Shown here in pieces: positions 3,559 to 63,811 of a stretch of 64,000 bases of DNA. Location of the stretch: NCBI GenBank assembly GCA_947479085.1, contig CANJYB010000013.1, positions 36,632 to 100,631 of the forward strand. Direction: 5' to 3'. The stretch's first letter is position 1; the number at the start of each line of letters is the position of its first letter. The position numbers and the translations under genes were made by a program. The stretch is from Bacteroidota bacterium. Its GTDB lineage: Bacteria > Bacteroidota > Bacteroidia > 2-12-FULL-35-15. The notes beneath the pieces were generated by a model. It had not been told where the DNA came from and did not search any database. It saw only the letters and a program-made list of their open reading frames with translations.

Positions 3559-3560
3559 AA

Positions 3561-5168: not shown

Positions 5169-8036
5169 TTATTGCTTCACCACACTTTGTTTCCACAATA
5201 CATCAGCATTCTCGCCCACCAACCTTACAAAATAAACTCCGTTTTCAAATTCTTCCAGGTTTATTTTCAAAGAAGATTTCCCTCCCGGCAGGGTATATTT
5301 TTGCTGAACTATTTTATGGCTCAATACATCATATAATTCCAAAGTCACATTTCCTTTTAAGGAAGCCACATCCAGTATAAATTCGTTTTGAGCAGGGTTA
5401 GGGTATCCTTTTATAGTGCCGGAAAGCATATCGGAAACACCCGTAACAGTAGTAATGGTGGCTGTAACCGGCACGCGGGGACTGGTGCAGACCACAGGTG
5501 CAGCCTGAACCACCCAGTCGTAAAAATAATAGTAATACGGAAGTCCCTGGCTGGAGCCGGTTATAGAGAGTTCGTTATTGATGGTATAAGGGTAGGCTGC
5601 ACTGCTGTTGCTTCTCCATAAGTAAGGGTTAATGTTATTGTTCCCGAAATTAGCTGCATTTACAGAATCGTTGGTGGTAAGCCTGAAGGTGGTGCCGGGA
5701 GTTAACGGCCAGTTAAGGCTTACCACAGTGGTGTCTGCCGGCAGGTTGATTAACAGGGAATGAAGCACTGTACCCGAATTATCTCTTAATTCAATTTTAC
5801 GAACGCCAACAGAATCGGTATATACCTTTACACTCTGCAAGGTACAAGGCACCAACACATCAAAAAACATTTGCCCGTTGGTAAGGTAATCGTTGTAAAA
5901 ATTAGACCCAATATGATAAGGTTGCCCCACATTAGCCACAGCACCAGAATAGGTAGTGGTGGCATCCACATAATAATCAGTGGTGGTATTGATAACGGGT
6001 GTGGTGTAAGTAGTTCCGGTGGTTAACAATGTTCCGCCCGAAATGGAATCGTACCAGGAAAGCGCTCCGGGTGCGCTTGCATATAATGTCAGGGAAGTTG
6101 GGCCTGTTCCGGTAGCTCCTGTACCAACGGGTGCAGGGTTGGAAAGAACATTTACAGAATCAGGTGCAGAAGTATAGTTTCCGCAAATGCCTGTTATAGT
6201 AACAATGTAAGTTCCTGTTTCGGGAGGATGAATGGATGCGGTGGTGGCGGTAAAGTTGTTGGGCCCTGTCCATAAGTAAGCGGAAGCAGGGCTGCTGGTT
6301 AAGGTCACTGTTCCTTCGCAAGGCAATGAAGTGCCGGTAGTGGTCACCAATGGTGTTTCGTTGGATGGAGGGATGACATGTACAGTAGGCGAAATATTGC
6401 TGCAACCTGCGGCATTGGTAACTTTCACGTTGTAATACCCCACTGCTGAAACATTGATGGATGGGGTAGTAGCCCCGTTAGACCATAAATAAGAACTGAA
6501 TCCGGGAGGTGCAGTAAGGGTTCGCGTTTGCCCGGTACATAATACAAATGGCCCTTGTATAATATTGCCGGTGATGGTGCAACCGCCTTCCACAGCGGTA
6601 ACAAACTGGTCGGCCTGTAAATTATAAAAGTAAGAATGTAAATGAGAAGGCCAGTCGATGCGGGCCGAATCAATGGTGGTATTGGTTCCTAATCCAAAGT
6701 GCATTTGCATGGAATTGGAAGTTCCGTAACTATCACCCGCATGTATTTCCCTTATCTGTTTTCCCCATGCACCGTAAATAGTAATTCGCGCCCCGATGGC
6801 ATTGGAATCGCTGACAGTTCCTATCAAATCGAACGTGATAAAATGATTGTTATTAACGGTGGAATTGAGATACAATATATCCGGATTATTAGTGGGATTA
6901 TTATAGGCCTGCCCGTAGGAAGTATACATATCTGTTTTACCGTCATGGTTCAAATCGCCTGTGGCAAAGGAAAGCATGCCGTAATTAACAGCAGCATTAC
7001 CGGAAACTAAAGAAAATGTTCCGTTACCATTATTATGATAAAAATACATCATATAACCTGAAACTAAAATATCCAGGAAACCATCGTTATCAAAATCCTC
7101 CACAGTTGATTCGAGTGGGTCTGCAAAAACATTAAAGCCGGTCATACCTGTAATGTCAGTATAATGACCTGTTCCGTCATTCTGCAAAATCTGGCTGGGC
7201 TCCCCATGGTTGGTTTTTACTATATCCAAATCACCATCGTTATCCAAATCGCCAAAACTGGTGGTCCAGGTTTGTTTATAATCAAAAGTTTCTATTCCAT
7301 AAGCTCCTGCCTGGTCGGTATACACATTGCTTCCATTATTTACAAACAGCCTGTCCTTTCTTCGAAGGTCGCCATTACTGTTTACTCCTTGCCGGCAATG
7401 CGCTACATACATATCCAGATCCCCATCATTATCAAAGTCGGTCCATACACTTCCGTAATTTCCTGAATCGTAACCACTGTATATATTAGTAACCATAAGC
7501 GAAAAATCGAAGTTTAAAACACCTGCGGTATTTCTGTACACCTTCGGAAAGTCGTCATCATCGCAAACAAATAAATCTACCCAACCATCATTATTAAAAT
7601 CTCCGAAAGTAATGTTCTGCACAAAGTAACTTCCACCAAGAATAACGGAAGAATAAGTAACCATGCCCCCGTTTGAAAAAAGTTTCACCAGGAAAATTGC
7701 TCCATAGCCTCCCACCGCCACATCTTTCCATCCATTGTGGTCCACATCAGCAGCCGACATTCCCCAGGCACCGATATAACTTCCCAACGAATCGCGGGTA
7801 TAAGTACCATCCTGCTGTTGAAGTTGGAGAATTAAAAAATAACCCTGATCCATTATTAACATATCGTCCAGCCCGTCATTGTTAACATCCACCACGGTAA
7901 CGGCATTGCCACTATAGGTTAAAAAAGGTAATGAAGAATTGGAGTTGGTAAATGTGAATTGAGCTTGCGCAGAAGCTGATAACAGCAAAGTAGCTGCAAC
8001 TAAAATCAGCGAACGGGTAAGAGTAATTTTTTTCAT
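5169..8036 (-). CDS. FG-GAP/VCBS-repeat (ASPIC/UnbV, CRTAC1-like) protein with Ig-like region and T9SS C-terminal domain
   Basis: 955 aa with a signal peptide. Repeated DxNxDGxxD motifs are present (DVNNDGLDDMLI, DFNNDGWVDLFV, DFDNDGDLDMYV, DLDNDGDLDIV). There is an UnbV-like segment NAIGARITIYGAWGKQIREIHAGDSYGTSNS. C-terminus GYPNPAQNEFILDV...VYFVRLVGEN looks like a T9SS CTD. Confidence 0.75.
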   Translation of the reverse strand: MKKITLTRSLILVAATLLLSASAQAQFTFTNSNSSLPFLTYSGNAVTVVDVNNDGLDDMLIMDQGYFLILQLQQQDGTYTRDSLGSYIGAWGMSAADVDHNGWKDVAVGGYGAIFLVKLFSNGGMVTYSSVILGGSYFVQNITFGDFNNDGWVDLFVCDDDDFPKVYRNTAGVLNFDFSLMVTNIYSGYDSGNYGSVWTDFDNDGDLDMYVAHCRQGVNSNGDLRRKDRLFVNNGSNVYTDQAGAYGIETFDYKQTWTTSFGDLDNDGDLDIVKTNHGEPSQILQNDGTGHYTDITGMTGFNVFADPLESTVEDFDNDGFLDILVSGYMMYFYHNNGNGTFSLVSGNAAVNYGMLSFATGDLNHDGKTDMYTSYGQAYNNPTNNPDILYLNSTVNNNHFITFDLIGTVSDSNAIGARITIYGAWGKQIREIHAGDSYGTSNSMQMHFGLGTNTTIDSARIDWPSHLHSYFYNLQADQFVTAVEGGCTITGNIIQGPFVLCTGQTRTLTAPPGFSSYLWSNGATTPSINVSAVGYYNVKVTNAAGCSNISPTVHVIPPSNETPLVTTTGTSLPCEGTVTLTSSPASAYLWTGPNNFTATTASIHPPETGTYIVTITGICGNYTSAPDSVNVLSNPAPVGTGATGTGPTSLTLYASAPGALSWYDSISGGTLLTTGTTYTTPVINTTTDYYVDATTTYSGAVANVGQPYHIGSNFYNDYLTNGQMFFDVLVPCTLQSVKVYTDSVGVRKIELRDNSGTVLHSLLINLPADTTVVSLNWPLTPGTTFRLTTNDSVNAANFGNNNINPYLWRSNSSAAYPYTINNELSITGSSQGLPYYYYFYDWVVQAAPVVCTSPRVPVTATITTVTGVSDMLSGTIKGYPNPAQNEFILDVASLKGNVTLELYDVLSHKIVQQKYTLPGGKSSLKINLEEFENGVYFVRLVGENADVLWKQSVVKQ

Positions 8037-32359: not shown

Positions 32360-33886
32360 TTATTTTACCAATAACATTCGTTTTGTTTCAGTAAAAATAA
32401 CTTTGTTGTTTTGTTTTGCTTCCATTTTGTAAAAATAACTTCCTGAGTTAAATGCGGAAATATCAGCTAATTCTACAGTATGATTTCCTGCTGTAACTTC
32501 GCTTGAAGAGTAAATGGTTTTTATTTTTCTGCCGGTAACATCATATAAATCTATGTTTACAGAGGCTGTTTGACTAATACTGAAATCTATTTGAGTTTTT
32601 CCGTTGGTAGGGTTCGGGTAATTTTGTCCCATGGTGTTTTCTATGGCATCGTTGGTAGCAATACCAACTCCGGATGTATGACATATTTTGAAAATTGTTC
32701 CCGCAACGGTGTATCCGCCTTTCATGGCGTAAATGCAACCATCAGCTCCTTGTTTCATTGAGGTCAATCCTCCAGTGGTTACATCAGCAAAAGTTACGTT
32801 AGATGTTACTACATCATAAGCAGGAGCATTTCCCATAGTTAAATTATAAATTTTGCCATTGTCATTATCTCCAACAAGTATGTGGTTATCAAATTCAGAC
32901 ATTATCGAACCTGAATAATAAAGACATCCTGTAACTGCCGGAGGATTACTCCAGGTTGCAATAGGACGAATATCTCCTGTTAAGTTGCAAGCTGTGGTGG
33001 TGGAGCCATTCATAAAATTCCCTTCGCAAGTGGCCCATCCGTAATTTCCTCCTTTATGAATAACATTGAATTCATCCCAGGTATTTAACCCATTTTCACT
33101 TGAATACATTGTATCTGTAACAGGACTGAAACACATACCAAACATGTTCCTGTTTCCGTAAGTCCATATTCTGTCATCATTTCCAACAGCAGGATTACCA
33201 TCATCATAATAAGGATTATCTGTTGGAATAGTTCCGTTTTTATTAATTCTTAATATTTTACCAAAAGGATAATTTAACTTATTTGCCATATTGGTAGCAG
33301 GTACTGTTTGGTTATAAGCAAGGTCACCTATCTGAACATATATTTTATCAGGCTGGCTCGGGCGGAAACGAATAATACCTCCAAAGTGATTACCTGCAAT
33401 GGCAATTGCCTGTCCGTTTACATTCGTTAATCCATTAACACTAATATCCATTATTATAGTAGGATTGGTACCTACGTTAGCATTTTCGGTAAATCTTAAA
33501 ATTCTGCAGGAATTAGCGGTTAACCACTTATGTACATAATAAACATAAACATAATGGTTGTTTGCAAAGTCAGGATCTATGGCAATACCAAGTAACCCTC
33601 TTTCAAAATCGCAATTAACTGAATCGGTTAGATCGTAAAAAGTAGAAAGTAAAACACCTGCTGAGCTATATACCAATATTTTTCCGTTGGCACATGAGCC
33701 TGCCGCGTTACCTCCTTTTTGATTAATAAAGTATCGCCCGTCAGCAGTCCAATCCCAATCGGTTGGATACTGTAAACCGGTAACAATATTAGTTTGAGTA
33801 TACATTGCCGGCAATGCCTGTGCATGTAATTTTAAAGAAGCAGTGATGGTAAACAAAACTGCAAAAGCAAGTAGTATTTTTTTCAT
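32360..33886 (-). CDS. PQQ-dependent sugar (glucose/sorbosone) dehydrogenase-like beta-propeller with T9SS C-terminal domain
   Basis: Signal peptide and ERGLLGIAIDPDFANNHYVYVYY. C-terminus QNYPNPTNGKTQIDF...SYFYKMEAKQNNKV...LLVK looks like a T9SS CTD. Confidence 0.65.
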   Translation of the reverse strand: MKKILLAFAVLFTITASLKLHAQALPAMYTQTNIVTGLQYPTDWDWTADGRYFINQKGGNAAGSCANGKILVYSSAGVLLSTFYDLTDSVNCDFERGLLGIAIDPDFANNHYVYVYYVHKWLTANSCRILRFTENANVGTNPTIIMDISVNGLTNVNGQAIAIAGNHFGGIIRFRPSQPDKIYVQIGDLAYNQTVPATNMANKLNYPFGKILRINKNGTIPTDNPYYDDGNPAVGNDDRIWTYGNRNMFGMCFSPVTDTMYSSENGLNTWDEFNVIHKGGNYGWATCEGNFMNGSTTTACNLTGDIRPIATWSNPPAVTGCLYYSGSIMSEFDNHILVGDNDNGKIYNLTMGNAPAYDVVTSNVTFADVTTGGLTSMKQGADGCIYAMKGGYTVAGTIFKICHTSGVGIATNDAIENTMGQNYPNPTNGKTQIDFSISQTASVNIDLYDVTGRKIKTIYSSSEVTAGNHTVELADISAFNSGSYFYKMEAKQNNKVIFTETKRMLLVK

Positions 33887-51239: not shown

Positions 51240-51493
51240 CGCAGGGGCAAAAGTAAGAAAATATATTAATTGTGTTTAATAGTGAATTGTTTTATCAATG
51301 ACTGAAAATGCCGAGAAGGAAAATACTTTGGCTTATTTCGTGTTTGCTGGAATGGATACAAAGAAGAAAAAATGAATATAGAAAGTGATTGATTTGTGAA
51401 AAAAGTCACAATAAGTCAGGGGTGAATCAACATTTGTAGTAAGATAATGATGATTGATTGGCCGGAATCAACCTTAGGGGTAAAAGGACCCTG

Positions 51494-51703
51494 CCCGCAA
51501 ACGTTTGGGATAGCATTTCCTTTTTCGGAAACCCGCCCGGAAACGTTCGGGATAGCATTTCCTTTTTCGGAAACTCGCCCGCAAACGTTTGGGATAGCAT
51601 TTCCTTTTTCGGAAACCCGCCCGGAAACGTTCGGGATAGCATTTCCTTTTTCGGAAACCCACCCGCAAACGTTTGGGATGGTATTTCCTTTTTCGGAAAT
51701 CAT
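51494..51703. repeat. tandem array: 5 x 42 bp in two alternating subtypes (true period 84 bp) with palindromic cores
   Basis: Units start at 51494, 51536, 51578, 51620 and 51662. Odd units carry the perfect palindrome CAAACGTTTG (51498, 51582, 51666). Even units carry GAAACGTTC. All units carry TTTCC-TTTTTC-GGAAA. Confidence 0.9.
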
Positions 51704-51941
51704 GATTGTTATACCAGGAGTCAGTCTTCGAGGTATTAGATTCATGATTGTTTTGCCAATAATTATCCTTAAGGGTGAAATAATTATAAAAGGAAGAAAC
51801 AAAAATCTTTTCGCTCTTTTATAGGAGTAATGAAATACATAATAAATAAGGTAAAAAGAATATTCAGAAATCAACATTTATTGCCTTAATAATTGTTTTA
51901 TAAAAAATCGCTACATTTACATCGATTTAATAATACCTTTT

Positions 51942-52445
51942 ATGCTTTTTAAGCGAATACTTACTTTGTTCCTTATTATTAATAGTTCCCTCATCATTGG
52001 ACAAACTATTCAGAGGGAAAGCCATTTCAGTTCTGCCGGTAATTATTCAAATAATGCCGGAATAATATTGCAATCGAACATTGGTGAGATGATGATTACT
52101 ACCGAAAATAATGGTCAGAACATGTTTATACAGGGATTTGTTCAGCCTGAACCGGTTATACTTACTTCTATTCCTTCCCTTTCCGGAATGGGAGGGAGCG
52201 TATATCCTAATCCGGTTATCAATAATCTTGTTGTACAGATTTATTTTGCAGATTGTTCAGATTTAAAAATAGAAGTTTTTGATGTATTAGGTAAAAAGCA
52301 GCTTTTTAAAAGAGAAGAAAATCAGTTCAACGGATATGTAAATTATGAATTGAATTTCCAGTCCTTTTCTGCCGGAATTTATTTTGTTAGAGTTGTTTCA
52401 GAAAGAAATCAATTTAATAAGACCTTTAAGATTAATAAAATATAA
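51942..52445 (+). CDS. small secreted protein consisting of a short N-terminal region plus a T9SS C-terminal sorting domain
   Basis: 167 aa with a signal peptide. SVYPNPVINNLVVQIYF...AGIYFVRVVSERNQFNKTFKINKI looks like a T9SS CTD. A 2-nt gap separates it from the next ORF. Confidence 0.65.
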   Translation: MLFKRILTLFLIINSSLIIGQTIQRESHFSSAGNYSNNAGIILQSNIGEMMITTENNGQNMFIQGFVQPEPVILTSIPSLSGMGGSVYPNPVINNLVVQIYFADCSDLKIEVFDVLGKKQLFKREENQFNGYVNYELNFQSFSAGIYFVRVVSERNQFNKTFKINKI

Positions 52446-52447
52446 CC

Positions 52448-54424
52448 ATGAAGTATATTACAAAACACTTTATATTTATTTTTCTTTTTTGTTTTTTTCT
52501 TAATGGTTCATTTGTTTCCTTTGCTCAATCTGTTCCACAGGGTTTCAATTATCAAACTACTATAAGAAATAATATTGGTGTGATTTTACCAAATCAATCC
52601 GTACGCCTGGAATTTTCATTTTATTCAGGAGCAGGGGGCACTTTATTGCAGTGGCAGGAAACTCAGTTGGTCACCACAGATATTTACGGGCAGGTAAAAA
52701 TGACAATTGGGATAGGAGCCAGTACCGGGGCGGGCGCGATTTCAGCATTCAATCAGATAAACTGGACAGGAGGCGTTTATTATTTAAAAGTATCAATGGA
52801 TGCAAGCGGGGGAAATAATTTTACAGATATAGGCACTGCTCAATTATTCTCGGTACCTTATGCATTTTATGCTCATTCCGCAAATTCGTTAAATAATATG
52901 AGTCTTGCAGAAATGCAGGATGTGGATACCACCGGACTGTTAACAAACAAAGTACTAAAATACAATGGCACTTATTGGGTTCCCGGAAATGATAATCATC
53001 ATGATACTGTTTCTTTTTCTTATAATGCAGGAAATTCTCACCTTACAGATACGGCTTATTACGTTTACAGTAATATTGTGCCCGATACGGTTTACTTTTC
53101 ATATAATTCAGGTAACACTGTTTATGCAACCAGTTCAGGCTTTTCTACAAATTCATTAAATGCGAATTACGCTGATACTGCCATTTATGCCTTAAATGTT
53201 ACTTCGGCCATTTGGTCATTAACCGGTAACTCCATTGGTGTTGCCGCTAATTTCCTTGGAACAAATGATGTAAATGATTTGGTTTTTAAAACAAACAATA
53301 CTGAAAGATGGAGAGTGAAAAACACAGGAAATGTTTCTGTTGGAAATAATGTAAATAACGGGAGATTTGCTTTTTCGGGTAATGATGGAATACTTGCTAC
53401 CGGAACTTTGGGACTTACCACTTCTCCATCGGTATATGGTTCCGGAACAAGAATGATGTGGTATCCGGCCAAGGCCGCTTTCAGGGCAGGAGGGATAAGT
53501 GGTAACTTATGGGATACGGCAAATGTCGGAAAATATTCGTTTGCCGCTGGATATAATAATAAAGCAGGAAACTATTCTTTTGCTGCAGGGTTTGGTTGCA
53601 GTGCCGGTGATTTTGATATGGCCATCGGGCGAAAGAACCAGGTTACCCCGACAGGAGCTTTTGCTTCCGGAGGAAACATTACAGCTGTGGCATTAGGAGA
53701 TAGCTGCACAGCAGGGGCTCAACGTTCTGTTTCAATAGGTAGGGGAAATGTTACTTCTGCATCCACAGCAGTTGCATTAGGTACCAATTGTAAATCGTTG
53801 GGAATTGTTTCATTAACCATTGGTAACAATAATACGGCTAACGGACATTATTCAACAGCTATCGGAAATCATGCAGTTACAGCATCAAATGCTTATGGTT
53901 CTTTTATGTTTGCAGATAATTCAACTTCAGCAGTTGCAATAAATAGTACACCAAAATCATTTCATGTAAGGGCGGATAGTGGAGTAGTTTTTTACACAGA
54001 CCCTTTATCTACTATGGGAGTACGTGTATTTGGAGGAGGAGGCAGTTGGTCAAATGTTTCAGACAGAACAAAAAAGGAAAACTTTAAAGTAGAAGATTGC
54101 GAAGCCATACTAAAAACAATAATAAAATTAAAAATTACAAGCTGGAATTACAAATCGCAAAATGATAATATCCGTCATATAGGACCAATGGCTCAGGATC
54201 TTTACGGTGCATATCATTTCGGTGAAAGCAGACAATCAATTACTACCACTGATATGGATGGAATAATACTATCAGGAATAAAAGCATTAAATACCAGGTT
54301 GAATCATCTTCAGGATTTTAAAAATGTGGATGAACTTAAAAGTGAAATTCAGGAAGAGGAAAAAGGTTTGGATGAACTGAACAAGCGGTTGGATTTAATT
54401 GAAAATTCAGAAATAAAAAAATAG
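52448..54424 (+). CDS. tail-fibre-like protein with peptidase S74 (intramolecular chaperone) domain and C-terminal coiled coil
   Basis: 658 aa with a signal peptide. AxG-type repeats span roughly residues 350-480 (YSFAAGYNNKAGNYSFAAGFGCSAG...). S538 begins SDRTKKENFKVED...ITSWNYKS....RHIGPMAQDLY. The tail is heptad-like. Confidence 0.7.
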   Translation: MKYITKHFIFIFLFCFFLNGSFVSFAQSVPQGFNYQTTIRNNIGVILPNQSVRLEFSFYSGAGGTLLQWQETQLVTTDIYGQVKMTIGIGASTGAGAISAFNQINWTGGVYYLKVSMDASGGNNFTDIGTAQLFSVPYAFYAHSANSLNNMSLAEMQDVDTTGLLTNKVLKYNGTYWVPGNDNHHDTVSFSYNAGNSHLTDTAYYVYSNIVPDTVYFSYNSGNTVYATSSGFSTNSLNANYADTAIYALNVTSAIWSLTGNSIGVAANFLGTNDVNDLVFKTNNTERWRVKNTGNVSVGNNVNNGRFAFSGNDGILATGTLGLTTSPSVYGSGTRMMWYPAKAAFRAGGISGNLWDTANVGKYSFAAGYNNKAGNYSFAAGFGCSAGDFDMAIGRKNQVTPTGAFASGGNITAVALGDSCTAGAQRSVSIGRGNVTSASTAVALGTNCKSLGIVSLTIGNNNTANGHYSTAIGNHAVTASNAYGSFMFADNSTSAVAINSTPKSFHVRADSGVVFYTDPLSTMGVRVFGGGGSWSNVSDRTKKENFKVEDCEAILKTIIKLKITSWNYKSQNDNIRHIGPMAQDLYGAYHFGESRQSITTTDMDGIILSGIKALNTRLNHLQDFKNVDELKSEIQEEEKGLDELNKRLDLIENSEIKK

Positions 54425-54449
54425 AAATATTGTTTGTAAAAAATATAAA

Positions 54450-56447
54450 ATGAAAAAACAAATTACAAAAACCTACTTGCTGTTGCTTTTTTTGATAGCA
54501 AACGCATACTCTGGTTGGGCACAATCTGTTCCACAGGGTATCACTTACCAGGGATTAGCAAGGTATTCATCCGGTGCCATTATTTCCAGCCATTTAATTG
54601 GCGTTAAAATCGGAATTTATTCAACATCGGTTAATGGTCCTTTGCAATGGGAAGAAATTCATAATCCTACTACAAATTCTTTGGGTTTATTTTATTTTAT
54701 TATCGGCCAGGGAGCATCTACCGGTGCAGGAGCACAGCCTTCCTTTTCTTCCATTAATTGGAGTTCGGCACCACATTTTATTAAAATAGCAATCGATTCT
54801 TCCGGTGGTTCCAATTATACAGATATTGATAACATGCAGTTCTGGTCGGTGCCTTATGCCATGAATGCTCAATCGGCCAATTCTGTGAATCAGACAATGC
54901 GATTGAATGACCTTATAGATGCTGATACTATTGGAGTAAACACAGGCTATTTATTGAAATGGAATGGCTCACTTTGGGTACCAGCTCCTGATAACAATTC
55001 GGATACTGCACTTTATTCTTATAATTCCTATCATTCTGTTACTTCCGATTCTGCATCTTATGCTGTAAATGTTTTATCCACAGTAGATACCGTATTATTT
55101 TCATATAATTCAGATTCTTCCCAGTTTGCAACTAATTCAACTAATTCCATTTATTCTCAAAACTCCAATTATTGCGATACCGCAACCTATGCTTTAAATT
55201 GCGGAGGTTCCAATTCAGGATGGAATTTGATGGGCAATGCAGGAACCAATGCAAATACTAACTTTATAGGTACCATTGATAATGCAGATTTTGTAATAAA
55301 ATCCAATTCGGCAGAAAGGATGCGAATAACTGCAGCCGGTAGAACCGGGATTGGAACATCATTACCATTGGCATCATTACACATTGTTGGAAATGATGGT
55401 TTACTTGCCGAAGGAACCTTAGGAACAGGAGCAGCACCTCCAACAGGAGTAGGAGTAAGGCTGGTTTGGTATCCAAAGAAAGCAGCTTTCAGGGCAGGTG
55501 GTGTTGCTGCCACCGGAGCAATAACCTGTTGGGATGACTACAGGATAGGTAATTATTCGTTAGCAGGTAATTATAATACTGTTGCATCAGCCGACTATTC
55601 AACTTCTTTTGGGGCATATAGTACTGCCAGCGGAATGTATTCTTTTTGTGGTGGTTATACAAGCACTGCATCAGGAATAAGTTCGGTTGCTATTGGCAGT
55701 GTGTGTAATGCAACAGGACCCTATTCGATAGCAATGGGCAGAGGTGCTACTGCCGCGGATACAGGTTCTGTTTGTTTGGGTTATCATAGTTACGCTTATG
55801 GGAAATATGGTTTTGCATTTGGAAATTATGATACAGTATATGCAAATTCTTTTGCCTTTGGATATAAAGGAACGTCAAATCATCACACAGGTTGTTTTGT
55901 TTTTTCAGATTCTACCAATGTGCCAACAAGAAATACTAACAATAACCAATTTATGGTTAGGGCATCAGGAGGTACTATTTTATACTCTAATGCAGCTATG
56001 ACTTCCGGTGTTTCATTACCTCCGGGAGGTGGTGCCTGGGCCAGTGTTTCTGACAGGAATAAAAAGGAAAATTTCAGGACAGAAAACAAGAATGATGTTT
56101 TAAACAAACTTTCTGAAATTGAAATTACTTCGTGGAACTATAAATCACAACCTGCCAGGATACGTCACATAGGACCTATGGCCCAGGATTTATATGCAGC
56201 ATTTAAAATGGGCGAAAGCGATTCTACCATTACTACAATTGATGTGGACGGATTAAGTTTACTAGCCATACAGGCACTTGCTGATAAAACAAAAGAACTA
56301 AATCAAAAAGCAAAAGAAATAGAGCAATTAAAAAAGCAATTAAGTGAATTGGCTACTCAGAAGAAACAACTCGAAAAAAGAATTTTTTCCATTGAAACAA
56401 GGTTAAACAATGGAACATTACCAAAGTCTGAAGGAAAGAAAGAATAA
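54450..56447 (+). CDS. tail-fibre-like protein with S74 domain (paralog of 52448..54424)
   Basis: 665 aa and collinear with the neighbouring paralog. Shared segments include AQSVPQG..YQ, SVPYA, WYPKKAAFRAGG, SDRNKKENF (S534), ITSWNYKSQPARIRHIGPMAQDLY and a coiled coil. Confidence 0.7.
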   Translation: MKKQITKTYLLLLFLIANAYSGWAQSVPQGITYQGLARYSSGAIISSHLIGVKIGIYSTSVNGPLQWEEIHNPTTNSLGLFYFIIGQGASTGAGAQPSFSSINWSSAPHFIKIAIDSSGGSNYTDIDNMQFWSVPYAMNAQSANSVNQTMRLNDLIDADTIGVNTGYLLKWNGSLWVPAPDNNSDTALYSYNSYHSVTSDSASYAVNVLSTVDTVLFSYNSDSSQFATNSTNSIYSQNSNYCDTATYALNCGGSNSGWNLMGNAGTNANTNFIGTIDNADFVIKSNSAERMRITAAGRTGIGTSLPLASLHIVGNDGLLAEGTLGTGAAPPTGVGVRLVWYPKKAAFRAGGVAATGAITCWDDYRIGNYSLAGNYNTVASADYSTSFGAYSTASGMYSFCGGYTSTASGISSVAIGSVCNATGPYSIAMGRGATAADTGSVCLGYHSYAYGKYGFAFGNYDTVYANSFAFGYKGTSNHHTGCFVFSDSTNVPTRNTNNNQFMVRASGGTILYSNAAMTSGVSLPPGGGAWASVSDRNKKENFRTENKNDVLNKLSEIEITSWNYKSQPARIRHIGPMAQDLYAAFKMGESDSTITTIDVDGLSLLAIQALADKTKELNQKAKEIEQLKKQLSELATQKKQLEKRIFSIETRLNNGTLPKSEGKKE

Positions 56448-56471: not shown

Positions 56472-57683
56472 ATGAAAAAGGTACTTTATTTGTTTACCGC
56501 AGAATACCCCTATGGAAGAACCGAAAGTTTTCTTGAAAATGAAATTCCTGTATTGGAAAAAAAATTTGAAACAATATTTATTTTTCCACATTCATCACAA
56601 AAGATTGAGAAAAGAACAATTCCTGAAAATGCTTACACCACCAAAGCAATAAACAAAAGGGAGGATTTAAATACCAAGAAGGTTTTTAGTAATAATTTTT
56701 TTTTTATTTGTTCCGTTCTCTTTTCAGAATTCATTCATTGTCCACGACCTGTTAATTTCCTGAAAAACATAAGGCAATATAACGCCTTATTAATCAGGGG
56801 AATTTATGATGCAGATAAAATAACAGTTGAAGCAAAGCATTTGCAAAAAGATGTTATTTATTATTCTTATTGGCTTAATGATTGGGCATTGGCACTTGCC
56901 GTATTAAAAAAGAAGAAGCTAATTGAGGGTTTTGTTTTTCGTTGTGCAGGGTTCGATATTTATGATGAAAGGCATCAGAGCGGTTTTTTACCATTCAGGC
57001 ATTTTGTTTATAAATGCGCTACTGCCATTTATCCCAATTCGATGGATGGAGTAAATTACATTAAAGCTAAAAAATGCTTTCCTGAAAAGGTTAAAATCCA
57101 ATATTGGGGAACAGGTGATTATGGTTTAAATCCTTTTAATTCTTCCGGAAAATTCACAATAGTTTCCTGTTCAAACATTATTCCCTTAAAAAGAGTAGAA
57201 TTAATTATCGAGATTCTTAAAAATATTACCTTTGAGGCTGATTGGGTGCATTTTGGTGATGGACCTTGTATGAAAGAAATGAAGGAAAGAGCATCCGATT
57301 TACCTGCAAATATTAATTTTGCATTTATGGGCAGGCTGCCAAACAAAGAGATTATTGAATTTTACAAAACCAATTCTGTAAATTTGTTTATTACAACAAG
57401 CGAAACAGAGAGTTTACCGGTTTCTGTTCAGGAGGCAATAAGTTTTGGGATTCCGTTGATAGCAACCAATGTTGGTGGCATGGCTGAAATTGTAAATGAA
57501 AAAACCGGTTTTTTAATTAACAAAGCTGTTAATGTGGAACAGGTGGCTAACCTGATTTCTCAATTTAAGTATGGGGCAGGTAACACTCCTGAATTCCGAA
57601 TAGGGGTAAGGAAATTTTGGATGAATAATTTTGAAGCGATAAAAAACTATTCTCTTTTTTATGAAGAAATAATTAAAACATAA
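56472..57683 (+). CDS. GT4-family (GT-B) glycosyltransferase
   Basis: E-x7-E region: TTSETESLPVSVQEAISFGIPLIATNVGGMAEIV. Confidence 0.7.
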   Translation: MKKVLYLFTAEYPYGRTESFLENEIPVLEKKFETIFIFPHSSQKIEKRTIPENAYTTKAINKREDLNTKKVFSNNFFFICSVLFSEFIHCPRPVNFLKNIRQYNALLIRGIYDADKITVEAKHLQKDVIYYSYWLNDWALALAVLKKKKLIEGFVFRCAGFDIYDERHQSGFLPFRHFVYKCATAIYPNSMDGVNYIKAKKCFPEKVKIQYWGTGDYGLNPFNSSGKFTIVSCSNIIPLKRVELIIEILKNITFEADWVHFGDGPCMKEMKERASDLPANINFAFMGRLPNKEIIEFYKTNSVNLFITTSETESLPVSVQEAISFGIPLIATNVGGMAEIVNEKTGFLINKAVNVEQVANLISQFKYGAGNTPEFRIGVRKFWMNNFEAIKNYSLFYEEIIKT

Positions 57684-57691
57684 AAAGTACC

Positions 57692-59152
57692 ATGTTATTT
57701 AATTCTTTTAGTTTTTTAGTTTTCTTTCCGCTCGTTACTCTTCTTTATTTTATATCTCCGTACAAATATCGTTGGCATATATTACTGGTAGCCAGCTGTA
57801 TATTCTATATGGCGTTTATTCCCTATTATATTTTAATTTTAGGTGGTACTATTGTCATTGATTTTTTTGCCGGAATTTTTATTGAAAATGCTACTGAACA
57901 AAATCAAAAAAAACAATTTCTTGTTATAACCCTAGTTGGCAATATTGGAGTGTTGGCTGTTTTTAAATACTATAATTTTTTTATTGATAATATTAGTGAA
58001 GTCATTGCTTACTTCGGATTTTCTTCTCCTCTTCGCTATCTTAGTATTATACTTCCAATAGGATTGTCTTTTCATACCTTTCAGGCAATGAGCTATGCTA
58101 TAGAAGTATATAGAGGAGGGCAACCCGCTGAAAGAAACTTCATTAAATATTCGCTTTATGTTATGTTTTTCCCTCAACTGGTGGCAGGGCCAATTGAGCG
58201 TCCTCAAAGTTTATTGCCTCAGTTCAGCTTGAATTATGATGTTAACTATGAAAGAATAGTTGCCGGATTAAAGCAAATGCTTTGGGGGTTCTTTAAAAAG
58301 ATTGTAATTGCTGATAGGTTGGCAGCTTTGGTAAAACAAGGTTACGGGGACATAGAAAACCATGATGGGTTTTCGTTGCTGATTTTTACTTACTTGTTTT
58401 CCTTTCAGATTTATTGCGATTTTTCGGGTTATTCCGATATAGCTATTGGCGCAGCTAAAGTATTGGGAATTAATTTACGCGAGAATTTCAGAACTCCATA
58501 TTTTTCAAAATCTATTAAGGAATTCTGGCAACGATGGCACATGTCATTATCAACATGGTTCAGGGATTACTTATATATCCCACTCGGGGGCAAAAAAGTG
58601 GGAAGAGGGCGTTGGTTTTTTAATTTATCCATTGTGTTTTTAATCAGTGGACTTTGGCACGGAGCAAACTGGACATTTATCGTTTGGGGCGCATTACATT
58701 GTTCTTATTTAATATTCGGTTATTTTTTAAAAAGAAATTTTGGGTGGGTTTTTATTTCGGTAGAGAAGCAAAGGAATACCCTGCAATATTATCTGCTTTC
58801 TGGAGCAAAAATTTTTATCACTTTTAACCTGGTGGCTTTTGCATGGATATTTTTTAGGGCAACAAGTATGGATGAAGCGTTTTCAATTATAGTAAAGATA
58901 TTTACTTTAGAAGATTTTGATAAGTTCAGCAACTTAAGCCTTTTTAAAATAAGTGATATAGCAAGTGTATTTGTAATGCTGGGCTTGTTAGGTTTATTTC
59001 TTGCTTCAGATTCATTTATGGATAAATTACTTAAGCAACAAAAGATAATTAAAAGCAAATTTTTGAATTATGCTTTATTTGCTTGTGTATTGGCTTTCAT
59101 ATTGCTTTTCGGACATTTTTCAGATACTAACTTTATTTATTTTCAGTTTTAA
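57692..59152 (+). CDS. MBOAT-family membrane O-acyltransferase (AlgI/DltB-like)
   Basis: ISFHTFQAMSYAIEVY, FPQLVAGPIERP, FWQRWHMSLSTWFRDYLYIPLGG and the conserved His in GLWHGANW. Confidence 0.85.
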   Translation: MLFNSFSFLVFFPLVTLLYFISPYKYRWHILLVASCIFYMAFIPYYILILGGTIVIDFFAGIFIENATEQNQKKQFLVITLVGNIGVLAVFKYYNFFIDNISEVIAYFGFSSPLRYLSIILPIGLSFHTFQAMSYAIEVYRGGQPAERNFIKYSLYVMFFPQLVAGPIERPQSLLPQFSLNYDVNYERIVAGLKQMLWGFFKKIVIADRLAALVKQGYGDIENHDGFSLLIFTYLFSFQIYCDFSGYSDIAIGAAKVLGINLRENFRTPYFSKSIKEFWQRWHMSLSTWFRDYLYIPLGGKKVGRGRWFFNLSIVFLISGLWHGANWTFIVWGALHCSYLIFGYFLKRNFGWVFISVEKQRNTLQYYLLSGAKIFITFNLVAFAWIFFRATSMDEAFSIIVKIFTLEDFDKFSNLSLFKISDIASVFVMLGLLGLFLASDSFMDKLLKQQKIIKSKFLNYALFACVLAFILLFGHFSDTNFIYFQF

Positions 59153-60121
59153 ATGGAAATCAAAAAAATAATATATAACGGGTTAGTATTTTTATTATTG
59201 TTCTCATTAATATACTTTCCTTCCCTGGTTTTAGTTTGCAAACTGAATTTTAAAAAGAAGCCTTTAATATATAGAACATCTGATATATACACTCTAAAAG
59301 GAGGGAACAGCTATCAGAAATTCAAGGAATTTAATAAGGAAAAGAAATATGATATTATCGTAATAGGTTCTTCCCATGCCTACAGAGGATACGATCCCCG
59401 AAATTTCAAAAAAGCAGGAATAAGTGTTTTTAATCTTGGAACTAGTGCTCAAACACCTCTAAATTCTTATATAATTGCAAAAAATTATGTCACTGCCTCA
59501 AATTGTAAACTAGTTATTTTGGACGTTTACGATGGAGCTTTTCATAATAATGGTTTCGAATCTTCCTCTGACTTAATTCAAAACCTTTCGTCTAATAAAG
59601 CAGCTTTTGAAATGGCCACAACTTATAATAACCCTCAGGTTATTAATATGTATGCATTGAGGTTGATTAATCAGAATAGTCCTGTTATTTATACCGATAG
59701 CCTTTATGTTGGAAATGGTTTTAGTGAAAAAAGGGACACCCTGAAGTATTCTCTTCCTTTTGATGAGTATGAAAACAGGTATCTTCCTAATGAATTGCAA
59801 ATTGACTACTTGGAAAAATTATTAAGCTATTTTAATTCAAATAATATTCCTGTAATTATGGTTACAGTGCCTTTTCCAAAAGAAAAAATAAAAGAACAAC
59901 ATAAAATATATAGTAAAATATTTAATGATCTTGCTTTAAAACATCATGTAAGGTACTTAGATTATTCATTTAATACTAATTTTAATTCGCAAACTCATTT
60001 TTATGATTCTCACCACTTAAATCAAACAGGGGTTGATTTGTTTAATAGTATTTTATTACAGGATTTTAAAAAGATGAAAATTCTTGAAGAAGAAGGTATT
60101 AAGTTTAATATTAAAAATTAA
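59153..60121 (+). CDS. SGNH/DUF1574-like partner of the MBOAT acyltransferase (AlgJ/X- or DltD-like role inferred)
   Basis: N-terminal TM anchor, block I-like VIGSSHA and block V-like YDSHHLN (D-x-x-H). It begins 1 nt after the MBOAT stop. Confidence 0.5.
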   Translation: MEIKKIIYNGLVFLLLFSLIYFPSLVLVCKLNFKKKPLIYRTSDIYTLKGGNSYQKFKEFNKEKKYDIIVIGSSHAYRGYDPRNFKKAGISVFNLGTSAQTPLNSYIIAKNYVTASNCKLVILDVYDGAFHNNGFESSSDLIQNLSSNKAAFEMATTYNNPQVINMYALRLINQNSPVIYTDSLYVGNGFSEKRDTLKYSLPFDEYENRYLPNELQIDYLEKLLSYFNSNNIPVIMVTVPFPKEKIKEQHKIYSKIFNDLALKHHVRYLDYSFNTNFNSQTHFYDSHHLNQTGVDLFNSILLQDFKKMKILEEEGIKFNIKN

Positions 60122-60154
60122 TTAATTCGTTACCAAACTATAAAAATTGGATCG

Positions 60155-61690
60155 TTGAAGTCTTACATTTATCTTGTCATTCTTATATTATTAGCTGTTT
60201 TTGTCAGGTTATTCGCAGTTTTTGAATTGAAACAGAACTTTTCAAATGATGAAAGTGTAACTTATTTAAGCGCTACCGGTAATCAGGTGCGATATGCAGA
60301 ATTGGTAAAACCGGATTCTAATTATATTGACCACCTTACGGTAACGAATATTTGGAAAAATTGTTATCAGCCTAATCCGAAATTTTGTTTTGGAAAGATT
60401 GCTAATGATTTGACTCAATATGATATCCACCCTCCATTATATTTTTGGCTGATACATGTTTTTATTCTGATATTTGGTTTGCACCTTTATACAGGTCTAA
60501 TTCTTAACCTTCTTATAACAATCTTTACTTTATGGGCTTTGTTCAGATTATCATATTTTATTTTGAATAATCAACTCCATGCCATAATGGTTTGTACATT
60601 TTGGTTTTTAAGTCCGGCTGTAGTACAGATGGATCTGGAAGCACGCCACTACCAGTTGCTTGCTTTGTTTACTATACTTTTAACTTATTCTTCTTTATTA
60701 ATTATAAAAAAGGAGGAATTGAGTAAAAAGAATATTTTATCTGTTGTTCTGTTGTCTGCTTTAGGAATGCTTACCCATTATTACTTTATGTTTATAATGA
60801 TTGGTGTTTTTATTCTGTTCTTTTGGAGATTTAAATTCTCCATTGTTCTTGCTAAAATTGTTGCTGCTTTTGTTGGTGGTTTTTGTCTTTTTCTTTTAAT
60901 ATTTCCTCAATTTATTGATTTTATTAAAAACTACTTATTGTTTAAGAAAGGGGTACATCATGTAAACGAGTATCAATCATTTACAGATAAAATAAAAACA
61001 CAGTTATTTGCAAGCCTTGATTTTGGGGCCTACGGTCATTTATTAAAGTACATTTATCTGGTGTTGCTCATAGTCTTTATTATTATAGTGGTAAGCAAAT
61101 TGATTAATAATAAAAAATTGAAGTCTTTTTCTTTTTCTAATCCCATACTTGCTATTTTGTTGCTTTTCTTATGGAATGTGTTTTTTACAGTAATGCTTTA
61201 CTTATGTAACATAAGTCCCAATCAGGCTGTAGGGGAGCAGTACTATTCTTATATCTGGCCATTCATTGCTATTCTTTTAGTTTATGCAATAAGATATATC
61301 AAGGTTTCAGTATATATTACTCTTTTTTATTTAACTGTTCTGTTTGTTTTCTTTATCCAATCTGTAAAGAATAGTCCATATGTAAAACGTGAAATTCTGG
61401 GAGAATGGTACACTGAGGCTAATAAAGCAGATTTGCTGGTTATTGATACTTACGACAGATGTTTGTTACCTCGGACGCTTTATTTTATTGGTAATGATAA
61501 AAAGGTTTTTGTTGGTGACATTAAAAAAATGAAGGAAGATTCAACTTTCAAAAAGGTGGTTGTTTTTTATTTAATTAACGATAAAAAGACTGTTGATCAT
61601 CAGCCATTAAGTGGTTATGAATTAATTAAGAAAGAAAAGTATCTGAAATCCGAAAACCATCCTTATTTTATGGAGTCTTATAAAAAATAA
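60155..61690 (+). CDS. GT-C (PMT_2/ArnT-like) membrane glycosyltransferase
   Basis: 511 aa, polytopic. It has an N-terminal-loop NDES.TY and an IHPPLYFWLIH motif. The start codon is TTG. Confidence 0.5.
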   Translation: MKSYIYLVILILLAVFVRLFAVFELKQNFSNDESVTYLSATGNQVRYAELVKPDSNYIDHLTVTNIWKNCYQPNPKFCFGKIANDLTQYDIHPPLYFWLIHVFILIFGLHLYTGLILNLLITIFTLWALFRLSYFILNNQLHAIMVCTFWFLSPAVVQMDLEARHYQLLALFTILLTYSSLLIIKKEELSKKNILSVVLLSALGMLTHYYFMFIMIGVFILFFWRFKFSIVLAKIVAAFVGGFCLFLLIFPQFIDFIKNYLLFKKGVHHVNEYQSFTDKIKTQLFASLDFGAYGHLLKYIYLVLLIVFIIIVVSKLINNKKLKSFSFSNPILAILLLFLWNVFFTVMLYLCNISPNQAVGEQYYSYIWPFIAILLVYAIRYIKVSVYITLFYLTVLFVFFIQSVKNSPYVKREILGEWYTEANKADLLVIDTYDRCLLPRTLYFIGNDKKVFVGDIKKMKEDSTFKKVVVFYLINDKKTVDHQPLSGYELIKKEKYLKSENHPYFMESYKK

Positions 61691-61783
61691 ATTATCAACT
61701 GATCTGTCATGATAATTTAGTTTATTTCCCTTGTTTCCAATTCAAAAATAATTGTACTTTTAATCGGTTTTGAAAATAATAGT

Positions 61784-62701
61784 TTGAGTAAAATGAATAT
61801 TTGGGTTTCGGTAATAATTCCCTGTTATAATGCAGAAAGCTATATAGGTGAATGCATCGAGTCAGTTTTAAGTCAATCTTATAAGAATATTGAAATAATA
61901 TGTGTGGAAAATAACTCTTCAGATAATACGCTCTCTGTATTAACTACCTACCTGACTAAGTTTCCGGAAAAATTAGTTCTGTTAAAGGAAACAAAACCAG
62001 GAGCTTCAGTAGCAAGAAATACAGGACTATCCGTTGCCAAAGGAGAATGGATTCAATTCCTTGATGCGGACGATATTTTACTTCCGGAAAAAATTATGAC
62101 TCAGCTTAAACTGGCAGTTGAATCGGATGCTGATATGGTTGTTGGTAATTATTCAAGAACAGAAAACAGTATTACAGAAAAGATTGTTCAGATAAAGGAT
62201 AGTTGGGAAGGGTTAATTAAAGGCCGTTTAGGATTTACAAGTTCGAATTTGTGGAAAAGAACAACTTTAACGAAAGTTGGGGGATGGGATGATATAAAAA
62301 GCAGCCAGGAGGCTTACCTGATGTTTAAAATTTTAAAGGAAAAGGGCAAGATAATTTTTGATGAAGAGTTTAATACTATAAAAATGGAAAGAACCAGGAA
62401 CTCTATTTCAAAAACAAATGTGAAGGATAATATAACCAGGTATATTGAGTTAAGAATTGCTGTTTGGAACTTCCTCGATTCTTCAAAACAGATGACAGGA
62501 CATATACAGAATGTCTTAAAAATAAACATTTTTGATAGTATCCGTATTTTGTATTCTGAGAATAAAGACGCTGGAATTTCTTTACATAATCAATATGTGA
62601 AGAATAAATTCATTCCTGTTTCTTCTTCCTCCACATCCGGAATATATTTGTTTTTATATAAATTATTAGGGTTTAAATTAGTTCAGAAACTTAGAGGTTA
62701 G
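61784..62701 (+). CDS. GT2-family glycosyltransferase
   Basis: VSVIIPCYNAESYI, VENNSSDNT and FLDADD. The ATG at 61793 is an alternative to the TTG at 61784. Confidence 0.8.
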   Translation: MSKMNIWVSVIIPCYNAESYIGECIESVLSQSYKNIEIICVENNSSDNTLSVLTTYLTKFPEKLVLLKETKPGASVARNTGLSVAKGEWIQFLDADDILLPEKIMTQLKLAVESDADMVVGNYSRTENSITEKIVQIKDSWEGLIKGRLGFTSSNLWKRTTLTKVGGWDDIKSSQEAYLMFKILKEKGKIIFDEEFNTIKMERTRNSISKTNVKDNITRYIELRIAVWNFLDSSKQMTGHIQNVLKINIFDSIRILYSENKDAGISLHNQYVKNKFIPVSSSSTSGIYLFLYKLLGFKLVQKLRG

Positions 62702-62707
62702 GTATTA

Positions 62708-63811
62708 ATGAAGAAAAAAATATTAATTGTTATAGGAACAAGACCTAATTTTATAAAGGTAACCCAATTCAAAAAGGAGGCATTGAAATATACTTCCCTT
62801 GATTTAAAGATTGTTCATACAGGTCAACATTACAGCAGTAAAATGGCTGATGTTTTTTTTGAACAGTTTGATTTGGTACCTGATTTCTTCCTCAATATAA
62901 CCCAGGATTCTGCCATACATCAAATGGCACAAATAATGACAAAACTGGAAGAACTTATCCTTACTTCTTATTCCCCGAATTTAATAATTGTGGTGGGGGA
63001 TGTAAACTCCACTTTAAGTGCAGCATTAGTAGCTAATAAATTGAATATTAAACTAGCCCATCTTGAAAGTGGTTTGCGTAGTTTTGATAGATTAATGCCT
63101 GAAGAACATAATCGTGTTCTTACAGATGTGATAACAGATTTTTATTTTGTTACTGAACAAAGCGGTATTGATAATCTGTTGAAGGAAGGACAGAATAAAG
63201 ATTCTGTTTATTTTGTTGGAAATACAATGATTGATACCCTGGTTAATTTTAGAACCAAAATCGAATCATCTTTGATATTAAAAGAACTGTCTTTATCCCC
63301 AAATGATTATGTACTAATGACGATGCATCGACCTGCAACAGTTGATGAGACTTCAGGCTTATTAAAGTTAACTGAACTGATTGAAGAAATTACAAAACAT
63401 CATAAAGTTGTATTTCCTGTTCATCCAAGGACATTAAAAAATCTTGAAAAATCAGGATTACTGGAAAGATTTGAGACGAATAAAAATATTATTTCAATAG
63501 AACCATTGGATTATTTTGCTTTTCAGCAGTTAATCTTGAACTGTAAATTTATATTAACCGATAGTGGAGGAATACAGGAAGAATCAACCTTCCTAGGTGT
63601 TCCTTGTTTAACCTTACGCCCCAACACTGAAAGACCAATTACCTGTTCTATTGGAACCAATACTTTAATTCCCTTTGATTTGGAAATCATAAAAGAACAA
63701 ATGAGTTTAATTGAAAAGAATCAATACAAAAAAGGCGAAATTCCTGAATTATGGGATGGAAAGTCTACTGAACGTATTGTAAATATCATCTCACAGGTCT
63801 TGAATGCATGA
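62708..63811 (+). CDS. wecB: UDP-N-acetylglucosamine 2-epimerase (non-hydrolysing)
   Basis: IGTRPNFIK, VGDVNSTL, HLESGLRSFD, PEEHNR, DSGGIQEE and RPNTERP. Confidence 0.9.
   Translation: MKKKILIVIGTRPNFIKVTQFKKEALKYTSLDLKIVHTGQHYSSKMADVFFEQFDLVPDFFLNITQDSAIHQMAQIMTKLEELILTSYSPNLIIVVGDVNSTLSAALVANKLNIKLAHLESGLRSFDRLMPEEHNRVLTDVITDFYFVTEQSGIDNLLKEGQNKDSVYFVGNTMIDTLVNFRTKIESSLILKELSLSPNDYVLMTMHRPATVDETSGLLKLTELIEEITKHHKVVFPVHPRTLKNLEKSGLLERFETNKNIISIEPLDYFAFQQLILNCKFILTDSGGIQEESTFLGVPCLTLRPNTERPITCSIGTNTLIPFDLEIIKEQMSLIEKNQYKKGEIPELWDGKSTERIVNIISQVLNA

Follow-up and report, generated by a model that had tools for sequence, protein, structure and literature searches.

Three consecutive genes on the forward strand, at positions 51942 to 56447 of a 64,000-nucleotide stretch of Bacteroidota DNA (contig CANJYB010000013.1; the whole stretch is called the window below), encode a 167-amino-acid protein that ends in a C-terminal sorting domain (CTD) belonging to a type IX secretion system (T9SS), followed by two large fibre proteins, A and B, which carry S74 modules. 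We lean towards the reading that these genes make up a host-encoded fibre system of two components, with the small protein, delivered by the T9SS, serving as adaptor or carrier, or both, for the base of the fibres. Several lines were observed directly: the domain content and sorting signals of the proteins, a conserved catalytic dyad, a cellular gene context, and a gene pairing that is both tight and widespread.

Open reading frames (ORFs) were called mechanically, and the small gene was separated from the fibre A gene by 2 nt and fibre A from fibre B by 25 nt. An earlier note on this DNA had described a three-gene operon here, and its coordinates, lengths and spacings were all exact. The features are as follows.

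51942-52445, forward strand: gene of the small protein, 167 amino acids (ORF; signal peptide, N-module, linker and type A CTD, that is, a minimal T9SS cargo)
51942-52001, forward strand: predicted Sec signal peptide of the small protein (residues 1-20, cleavage IIG/Q; read from the sequence)
52002-52151, forward strand: N-module, the conserved passenger (residues 21-70: QTIQRESHFSSAGNY...NIGEMM...IQGFVQPE)
52197-52445, forward strand: T9SS type A CTD and stop codon (residues 86-167; found by Pfam, NCBIfam and our own CTD profile)
52448-54424, forward strand: gene of fibre paralog A, 658 amino acids (ORF; signal peptide, MAT_N-like domain, shaft, YadA-head-like beta-helix, S74 chaperone, coiled coil)
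52526-52897, forward strand: immunoglobulin (Ig)-like, MAT_N-like domain of fibre A (residues ~27-150; NF053851, 29.7 bits, E=4.7e-7)
53498-54007, forward strand: YadA-head-like beta-helix of fibre A (residues ~351-520; probable exposed tip after S74 cleavage)
54059-54247, forward strand: putative S74 intramolecular chaperone/self-cleaving module of fibre A (starts at Ser538, SDRTKK; PF13884, 36 bits)
54450-56447, forward strand: gene of fibre paralog B, 665 amino acids (ORF; architecture as in fibre A; the more conserved lineage)
54522-54893, forward strand: MAT_N-like domain of fibre B (residues ~25-148; NF053851, 42.1 bits, E=7.2e-11)
56049-56204, forward strand: S74 module of fibre B (starts at Ser534, SDRNKK; PF13884, 42.2 bits)

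Architecture of the small protein and the two fibres

The small protein matched PF18962 with 45.5 bits (cut-off 27) over residues 87-162, and TIGR04183 with 45.6 bits (cut-off 23). Together the matches cover residues 87-164 of 167, at the extreme C-terminus, and by curated thresholds the protein counts as a true type A cargo with a CTD. Pfam and NCBIfam scans recognised nothing in it besides this CTD, and it had no match in PHROGs. The signal peptides of the small protein and both fibres were judged by eye from a hydrophobic core, a small residue (A/G) and a following Gln, which gave the putative cleavage sites IIG/Q in the small protein and SFA/Q and GWA/Q in the fibres; residues 2-22 of the small protein were also modelled as a helix. 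About 65 residues are left between the IIG/Q leader and the CTD. The minimal build attributed to this protein in the earlier note, namely a signal peptide, a short passenger and a T9SS CTD, was thus borne out, with the signal peptide as a prediction. In the structure model the CTD formed a beta-sandwich with a block-mean predicted local distance difference test (pLDDT) value of 69-86 over residues 81-167, and the N-module alone stayed below a pLDDT of 50 (residues 20-74, shallow alignment), whereas the CTD and the fibre N-domain folded confidently. The N-module covers ~47 residues with the general motif ..IGE..LTQGFxQP; G65-F66-V67-Q68-P69-E70 was invariant among close homologues of the small protein, and the form found in Crocinitomicaceae was ...GGQ...HGYYPL.

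Fibres A and B are 40% identical. Their S74 modules (PF13884, cut-off 22) scored 36.0 bits in fibre A (residues 538-586) and 42.2 bits in fibre B (534-585), and by these scores both are bona fide S74 carriers. The SDxxxK dyad was found at S538...K543 in A and S534...K539 in B, and in 32 relatives the Ser was at least 90% conserved and the Lys invariant; the serines lay where they had been placed before, Ser538 at nt 54059 and Ser534 at nt 56049. S74 modules are cut at the catalytic Ser (PMC10769870), and by analogy the mature fibres would comprise approximately residues 27-537 (A) and 25-533 (B). The coiled-coil tails that had been assigned to the fibres are indeed present C-terminal to S74, but they lie after the cleavage site and would leave with the released chaperone, so they count as part of it.

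Directly behind the signal peptide, both fibres have a domain related to the N-terminal domain of mosaic adhesive trimer (MAT) fibres. The curated model NF053851 (Bdello_MAT_N) has a cut-off of 60 bits and both window fibres scored lower, but 31 of the 32 fibre-family members matched it at E<=1e-3. We built profiles of the CTD, the N-module and the MAT_N domain from sequences gathered in this analysis, and the MAT_N profile recognised fibre A with 4.6e-45 and fibre B with 1.3e-45. By its NF053851 scores, the fibre N-domain is a remote relative of the Bdellovibrio MAT N-domain that falls outside the curated model. The AlphaFold2 model of the fibre A monomer, for which 32 relatives were aligned, showed a confident beta-sandwich at ~30-133 (block-mean pLDDT 76-92 over residues 31-130), and residues 135-343 were of low confidence, as expected for a shaft that folds only as a trimer. 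Then came a strand-rich part at ~360-500 (block-mean pLDDT mostly 71-86 over 361-480, ~65 near 520), the S74 region, and one long helix at 600-657. A Foldseek search of the PDB with the fibre model found only generic Ig-like sandwiches (none better than E=5e-3), and a PDB sequence search gave nothing significant; the Foldseek result agrees with the remark in the MAT paper that the N-domain has no structural homologue, and that paper left open what the N-domain binds (PMC10769870). The strand-rich part matches YadA_head and YadA-family models; YadA-head repeats reached 36.4 bits in fibre B (cut-off 25) and 20 bits, below the cut-off, in fibre A.

The earlier note had seen neither a CTD nor a lipobox in the fibres, and this held. 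Pfam, NCBIfam and our CTD profile found no CTD in A or B, and PF18962 was annotated in none of the fibre relatives listed with precomputed Pfam annotations, including ~85 full-length ones (at least 90% query coverage), so a hidden CTD was excluded. Lipoprotein sorting was excluded as well, since neither fibre has a lipobox or any Cys; a lipobox-like motif occurred in 1 of 32 relatives.

Identity between A and B is lowest in the beta-helix (30%) and in the C-terminal coiled coil (29%), and the low value of the beta-helix would fit two different tips. Over 12 loci, identity averaged 47% between B fibres and 35% between A and B, which indicates that the paralogs are old. We also observed that the N-module ends in IQGFVQP (52130-52150) and that the mature fibres start with QSVPQGFNYQ (52526-52552) and QSVPQGITYQ (54522-54545); the common QGF/QGI-type strand motif might mark a contact between N-module and fibre.

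Conserved gene pairing and its partner domains

Close homologues of the small protein are few, and their contigs showed the order small CTD gene, fibre, fibre, GT1. A scan with one genome per species then gave 13 loci with full-length fibre relatives (L007-L019), all from Bacteroidota metagenome-assembled genomes (MAGs), including Flavobacteriales, Crocinitomicaceae and Crocinitomix. The triplet was present in L001, L004, L007-L019 and L032, and L046 had a single-fibre version. The upstream small protein in these loci had 153-181 amino acids, made up of a signal peptide and a short passenger ahead of a CTD; its identity went down to below 30%, and the taxa reached Crocinitomicaceae and one Cyclobacteriaceae MAG. 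A CTD gene was adjacent to the fibres in 15/15 related loci, compared with 1/120 among non-adjacent genes (Fisher p = 2e-11; the 15 loci are partly akin and not all phylogenetically independent), far more than chance would produce. The check that the earlier note had proposed for itself, whether relatives keep the pairing, thus came out strongly in its favour. The GT1 orthologue stood right after the fibres in L001, L004 and L007, and 1-3 kb further downstream in L009 and L010.

The N-module belongs to a large family. A word-indexed N-module profile search returned only 10 short proteins, yet it was the source of the broader form ...SLSWTIGEP...LTQGF[QH]Q and of a variant with an IPTL-CTERM-like tail. 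The small protein of the window matched our N-module profile with 2.8e-24. An exhaustive profile search collected 8,019 clusters (50% identity) at E<=1e-3, of which 2,894 reached E<=1e-10. Among the best matches, nearly all had ~155-170 amino acids, and public names went no further than "T9SS type A sorting domain-containing protein" or "hypothetical". The N-module always stood directly before the sorting signal, also in versions of 407-436 amino acids. Such longer CTD proteins were seen in L163, L177, L186, L190 and L194, with the N-module at residues ~267-351 just before the CTD, and the gene downstream of them encoded a protein of 174-175 amino acids that is barely more than a MAT_N domain. 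Two proteins (P0137 and P0135) joined the N-module to an IPTL-CTERM-like hydrophobic tail and had no CTD. P0137 lies at 7034-7351 of L151 with the tail IPTMSQWAYFLYGLVIFTIGVVG, whose IPTL-CTERM-like score was 10.5 bits (cut-off 20.5). This was the one IPTL-CTERM-like locus examined, and its downstream genes were again MAT_N-like, which suggests that the sorting signal is interchangeable and the partner is not.

An independent retrieval used the pattern [NA]xLTQGF[QH]Q alone and was blind to gene context. It yielded 80 metagenomic loci, 64 of which had enough room downstream to be evaluated. A MAT_N-like gene lay directly downstream in 47 of the 64 (gap usually 2-21 nt) and directly upstream in 3 more. 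A CTD was present in 62 of 68 complete N-module proteins, most of which had 158-193 amino acids, and in 0/47 complete MAT_N partner proteins, in which the domain was always N-terminal. The partners ranged from 174 to 1054 amino acids, and 0/31 complete immediately downstream partners had an S74 match to the fibre profile. The conserved partnership thus joins the N-module to the fibre base domain and not a CTD protein to S74. The earlier note had claimed a pairing of CTD protein and S74 fibre: the pairing recurs, but its partner element is the MAT_N-like N-domain. The role of tip partner that had also been offered is unlikely, since tips vary and it is the base domain to which the pairing is tied, an association that points towards the cell-proximal end of the fibre. 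Among these loci, L223 (4896-9182) carried two consecutive cassettes, in each of which a small CTD protein is followed by a MAT_N protein (329 and 675 amino acids) that contains collagen-like G-x-y repeats, and its second small protein had the variant motif SVGQ...NQGVQQP.

The same pairing had further been claimed for 3561-4532 and 994-3558 of the window, and there we found a different arrangement. The 854-amino-acid S74 protein at 994-3558 (minus strand) has its own C-terminal CTD after S74 and the coiled coil (PF18962 26.8 bits for the isolated tail, against a cut-off of 27; our CTD profile 5e-15). By our profiles it has no MAT_N domain, and its 323-amino-acid CTD neighbour, encoded upstream at 3561-4532, has no N-module. 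The module is thus not repeated at this locus, and its fibre is self-tagged. Self-cleavage at the S74 serine would part this fibre from its own secretion tag, so cleavage would have to be delayed until after export, or the cut chaperone-CTD would stay bound as a carrier; the arrangement would then be a cis analogue of the trans mechanism proposed below.

A looser association was found elsewhere. CTD-less S74 fibres, mostly of ~380-480 amino acids, adjoined unrelated CTD proteins of 324-575 amino acids in 12/15 Bacteroidota loci (Fisher p = 4e-7; ~7 independent lineages), including Dyadobacter, Niastella, Taibaiella, Rufibacter and other Bacteroidota. Ten fibres from these and related loci (378-514 amino acids) were inspected; all had a signal peptide, and the fibre profile matched them only from ~250-325 onwards, beyond the N-terminal domain. 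The CTD neighbours belong to another family, in which an LPVxLxxFxA...W.T domain precedes the CTD. This pattern may represent an independent second form of trans tagging. It was seen in L021, L022, L024, L029, L034, L037, L043, L045, L064, L077 and L081, and also, outside the 15-locus count, in the WOR-3 MAG locus L063.

Every fibre-family locus lies among glycan-synthesis genes. A Wzc-like tyrosine kinase of ~800 amino acids, with Wzz, GNVR and AAA_31 domains and a Tyr-rich YGYGYG tail, was found in L004, L007, L009, L011 and L013-L019, directly upstream of the small gene in 10/13 genome loci, and Wzm/Wzt orthologues of an ABC transporter occurred in the flanks of 11/13. The Wzc-like, Wzm and Wzt genes are missing from the window itself. 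The module thus seems to belong to the regular equipment of surface-glycan loci of the ABC-transporter type, and such a setting would suggest roles in adhesion, aggregation or surface-glycan organisation. The Bacteroidota O-glycosylation sequon D[ST][AILVMT] occurred 7.6 times per fibre, compared with 2.6 times in shuffled sequences, a three-fold enrichment, and four sites (fibre A 186, 201, 213 and 243, with equivalents in fibre B) were kept in at least 70% of 32 relatives within a repeated DTAxYAxN motif. Together with the flanking PMT_2 and glycosyltransferase genes, the DT[AV] sequons hint, speculatively, that the fibre shaft is glycosylated or that the neighbouring genes make the anchor glycolipid.

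Proposed mechanism and competing explanations

In the mechanism we propose, the MAT-like fibres A and B would be exported to the periplasm by Sec, and the S74 chaperone would drive folding of the trimer and then cut itself off at Ser538/Ser534; trimerisation and self-cleavage are taken here from what is known of the family. The cut would remove the coiled-coil tail and leave the beta-helix as the exposed tip. The N-module would bind the fibre trimer at its N-terminal Ig-like domain, with strand addition as the probable mode, and the CTD would take the mini-protein through the T9SS, where the CTD is presumed to be removed. The new C-terminus would then be fixed to a surface glycolipid in those species that have an attachment complex of the PorU/PorZ type. 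The mini-protein would in this way supply in trans the export and attachment signal that the fibres lack, either by carrying the folded fibre outward or by docking it at the surface. Physical binding, co-export and glycolipid anchoring are the steps that we infer.

We give less than even odds to a more specific version, in which the mini-protein is a dedicated carrier whose N-module clamps the base of the folded CTD-less trimer in the periplasm and whose CTD pulls the complex through SprA, after which it would become a glycolipid-linked foot. Hitch-hiker export is known for other folded-protein systems: twin-arginine translocation (Tat) and type II secretion (T2SS). By this analogy a signal-less folded partner would ride with a signal-bearing one, which for the T9SS is purely our extrapolation. 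The T9SS transports folded proteins (PMC9251779), so co-export is physically reasonable.

Several points weigh against the proposed system. Fourteen of the 64 evaluable N-module loci had no adjacent MAT_N gene, and in a distance-matrix co-evolution test against MAT_N both the N-module and the CTD, the control, were correlated, so that the test did not discriminate (partial r 0.49 for the N-module vs 0.41 for the CTD). The 854-amino-acid protein with its own CTD indicates that an S74 fibre can be tagged in cis. Literature searches found no case of piggy-back or hitch-hiker export via the T9SS. Many type A cargos in Flavobacterium-like species are released and not anchored, so anchoring may not apply here. 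To our knowledge, Bdellovibrio has no T9SS. It nevertheless carries MAT fibres on its surface (PMC10769870), in which case a need for T9SS export would not be intrinsic to the N-domain.

This last point also favours an explanation that we consider somewhat unlikely, in which the fibres cross the outer membrane by another route and the small protein is only an anchor, that is, a surface receptor for the fibre base without T9SS co-transport. The IPTL-CTERM-like hydrophobic tail would suit an anchor better than a T9SS carrier, although that assignment is sub-threshold (10.5 vs 20.5 bits), and the N-module always abuts the sorting signal, the future attachment point. On the other hand, no other export signal or transporter gene is conserved beside the fibres, and none of the 47 MAT_N proteins has a CTD of its own, though CTDs are the standard route of surface export in the phylum. 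It is improbable that the small protein is linked to the fibres in function without being a stable part of them, whether as a T9SS cargo with a regulatory or signalling role or as a factor needed only transiently for assembly. Small assembly-chaperone genes often accompany phage fibre genes, which would favour an assembly factor, but the fibres already have their own S74 chaperone, the MAT_N pairing persists for partners without an S74 match, and a periplasmic assembly factor would need no outer-membrane export tag. For signalling there is the precedent of PorA (246 amino acids), which feeds PorXY-SigP signalling, and mutants in sprA and porV still secrete the 112-amino-acid CTD protein Fjoh_0547 (PMC7712824); the PorA passenger, however, is a folded Ig-like domain of 134 residues, whereas the passenger here has ~50 residues, no predicted fold and no detected similarity to PorA.

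The glycan genes raise the question whether the genes simply share a polysaccharide service, with the fibres as glycoproteins or glycan-binding or glycan-processing proteins of a capsule/O-antigen-like layer and the small protein as an unrelated glycolipid-linked peptide. The glycan genes at every family locus (Wzc-like kinase 10/13, Wzm/Wzt 11/13), the GT1, GT2, MBOAT and PMT_2 genes in the window flanks, and the three-fold sequon enrichment with its four conserved sites all agree with this, but it leaves unexplained both the N-module/MAT_N pairing in loci retrieved blind to context and the tandem small-plus-fibre cassettes of L223, and Pfam and NCBIfam detected no hydrolase or lyase domain in the fibres. 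We give it a low probability as a full explanation; it is compatible with the two-component fibre reading and does not exclude it. The S74 module and the PHROG tail-fibre matches of fibre B (phrog_1980, E=4.7e-8) could also point to fibre genes that decayed in situ within the remnant of a prophage or tailocin, which is very improbable. The neighbours within ~10 kb (MutS, START_2, PAP2, PMT_2, GT2, GT1 and MBOAT) are cellular, with no phage gene among them, as the earlier note had held in calling the fibres host-encoded. In a search of 2.9 million viral contigs, 65 of 66 matches were confined to residues ~485-639 (S74 and its surroundings); the widest, L085, covered residues 360-651 and so reached into the beta-helix, and none covered the N-domain or shaft or was a full-length relative. 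Both genes are intact and keep the same chromosomal glycan context across families, and the proteins have signal peptides as judged by eye. A prophage or tailocin tail fibre was therefore rejected.

Relation to known systems and genomic setting

The closest described fibres are the MAT fibres of Bdellovibrio bacteriovorus, in particular their S74 subgroup (Caulton et al. 2024, PMC10769870). The module works like such a fibre combined with a T9SS cargo. The fibres of the window are likewise host-encoded and not phage-encoded, they have variable (mosaic) shafts and tips and a C-terminal S74 chaperone with SDxxxK, and some members of the wider family have no detectable S74 match, as among MAT fibres. 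The distal parts are mosaic throughout: proteins that start with MAT_N have 174-1054 amino acids, and some carry S74, some collagen-like repeats and some no S74 match. The MAT_N-like domain is beta-rich and directly follows the signal peptide, as in the MAT family, and does not reach the NF053851 cut-off. The two groups differ in that score (29.7/42.1 bits vs 60), in taxon (Bacteroidota here), in length (~650 vs ~1,000 amino acids), in the glycan-synthesis loci, and in the dedicated small T9SS-CTD gene ahead of the fibres; no such small partner was described for Bdellovibrio MAT fibres (PMC10769870), and the supplement text of the MAT paper does not mention Bacteroidota.

The small protein resembles PorA of P. 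gingivalis (PMC7712824) and Fjoh_0547 of F. johnsoniae in its predicted signal peptide, its small passenger and its type A CTD at the C-terminus. The N-domain of PorA is Ig-like, FimH-like and ~135 residues long (PMC7712824), whereas the passenger here is ~50 residues with a pLDDT below 50 and no family match, and unlike known small CTD proteins it has the LTQGFxQP-type motif and an obligatory-looking pairing with a CTD-less fibre gene. The fibres share the above-threshold S74 Ser-Lys dyad with the phage endosialidase/tail-fibre chaperone (PF13884) and differ from phage S74 proteins in the rest of the protein and in the cellular context. With the YadA family they share YadA-head-type repeats, and a trimeric beta-helix build is expected, but by Pfam and NCBIfam there is no C-terminal anchor barrel, and S74 and a coiled coil stand in its place. 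Without this barrel the fibres cannot export themselves, and a trimeric autotransporter was rejected.

In the literature searched we found no description of the N-module, of its pairing or of a trans-tagged T9SS cargo. T9SS substrates are defined by their own CTD, and if the fibres are indeed tagged in trans, secretome prediction would have to change to take in CTD-less cargo that is now invisible, and a family of ~8,000 clusters, that of the N-module, would gain a function. The N-module would be a concrete candidate for the binding partner of the conserved MAT N-domain, and mosaic fibres of the MAT type would occur not only in a predatory bacterium but also in common environmental Bacteroidota, where they lie in capsule/O-antigen-like loci. 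If the carrier version were true, this would be the first hitch-hiker export through the T9SS and would reveal a surface element that holds MAT-type fibres, in thousands of Bacteroidota gene pairs.

Downstream of the fibres the genes run on in the same direction:

56472-63811, forward strand: GT1, MBOAT, 322-amino-acid ORF, PMT_2-like, GT2 and 367-amino-acid ORF, co-directional with short gaps

These genes, down to 63811, possibly share a transcript with the fibre operon. No terminator-like sites were found in the intergenic gaps of the fibre operon or in the gap between fibre B and GT1, and the terminator scan gave a weak 5-bp stem inside the fibre B gene at 55172. A sigma-70 promoter scan was uninformative, this promoter type being the wrong one for Bacteroidota. 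CTD proteins account for 5 of the ~52 genes of the window, including those at 3561-4532, 5169-8036 and 32360-33886, which indicates an organism rich in T9SS cargo and suggests that it uses the T9SS; it also makes it more likely that any one adjacency to a CTD gene, such as that at 994-4532, arises by chance. A 42-bp unit occurs in five tandem copies (51488-51699, 91% matches, consensus ACCCGCCCGCAAACGTTTGGGATAGCATTTCCTTTTTCGGAA) within the 700 nt that separate the fibre operon from the divergent GT2 gene. It produces spurious overlapping ORFs on both strands at 51416-51877, and it might be a regulatory element or a mobile repeat.

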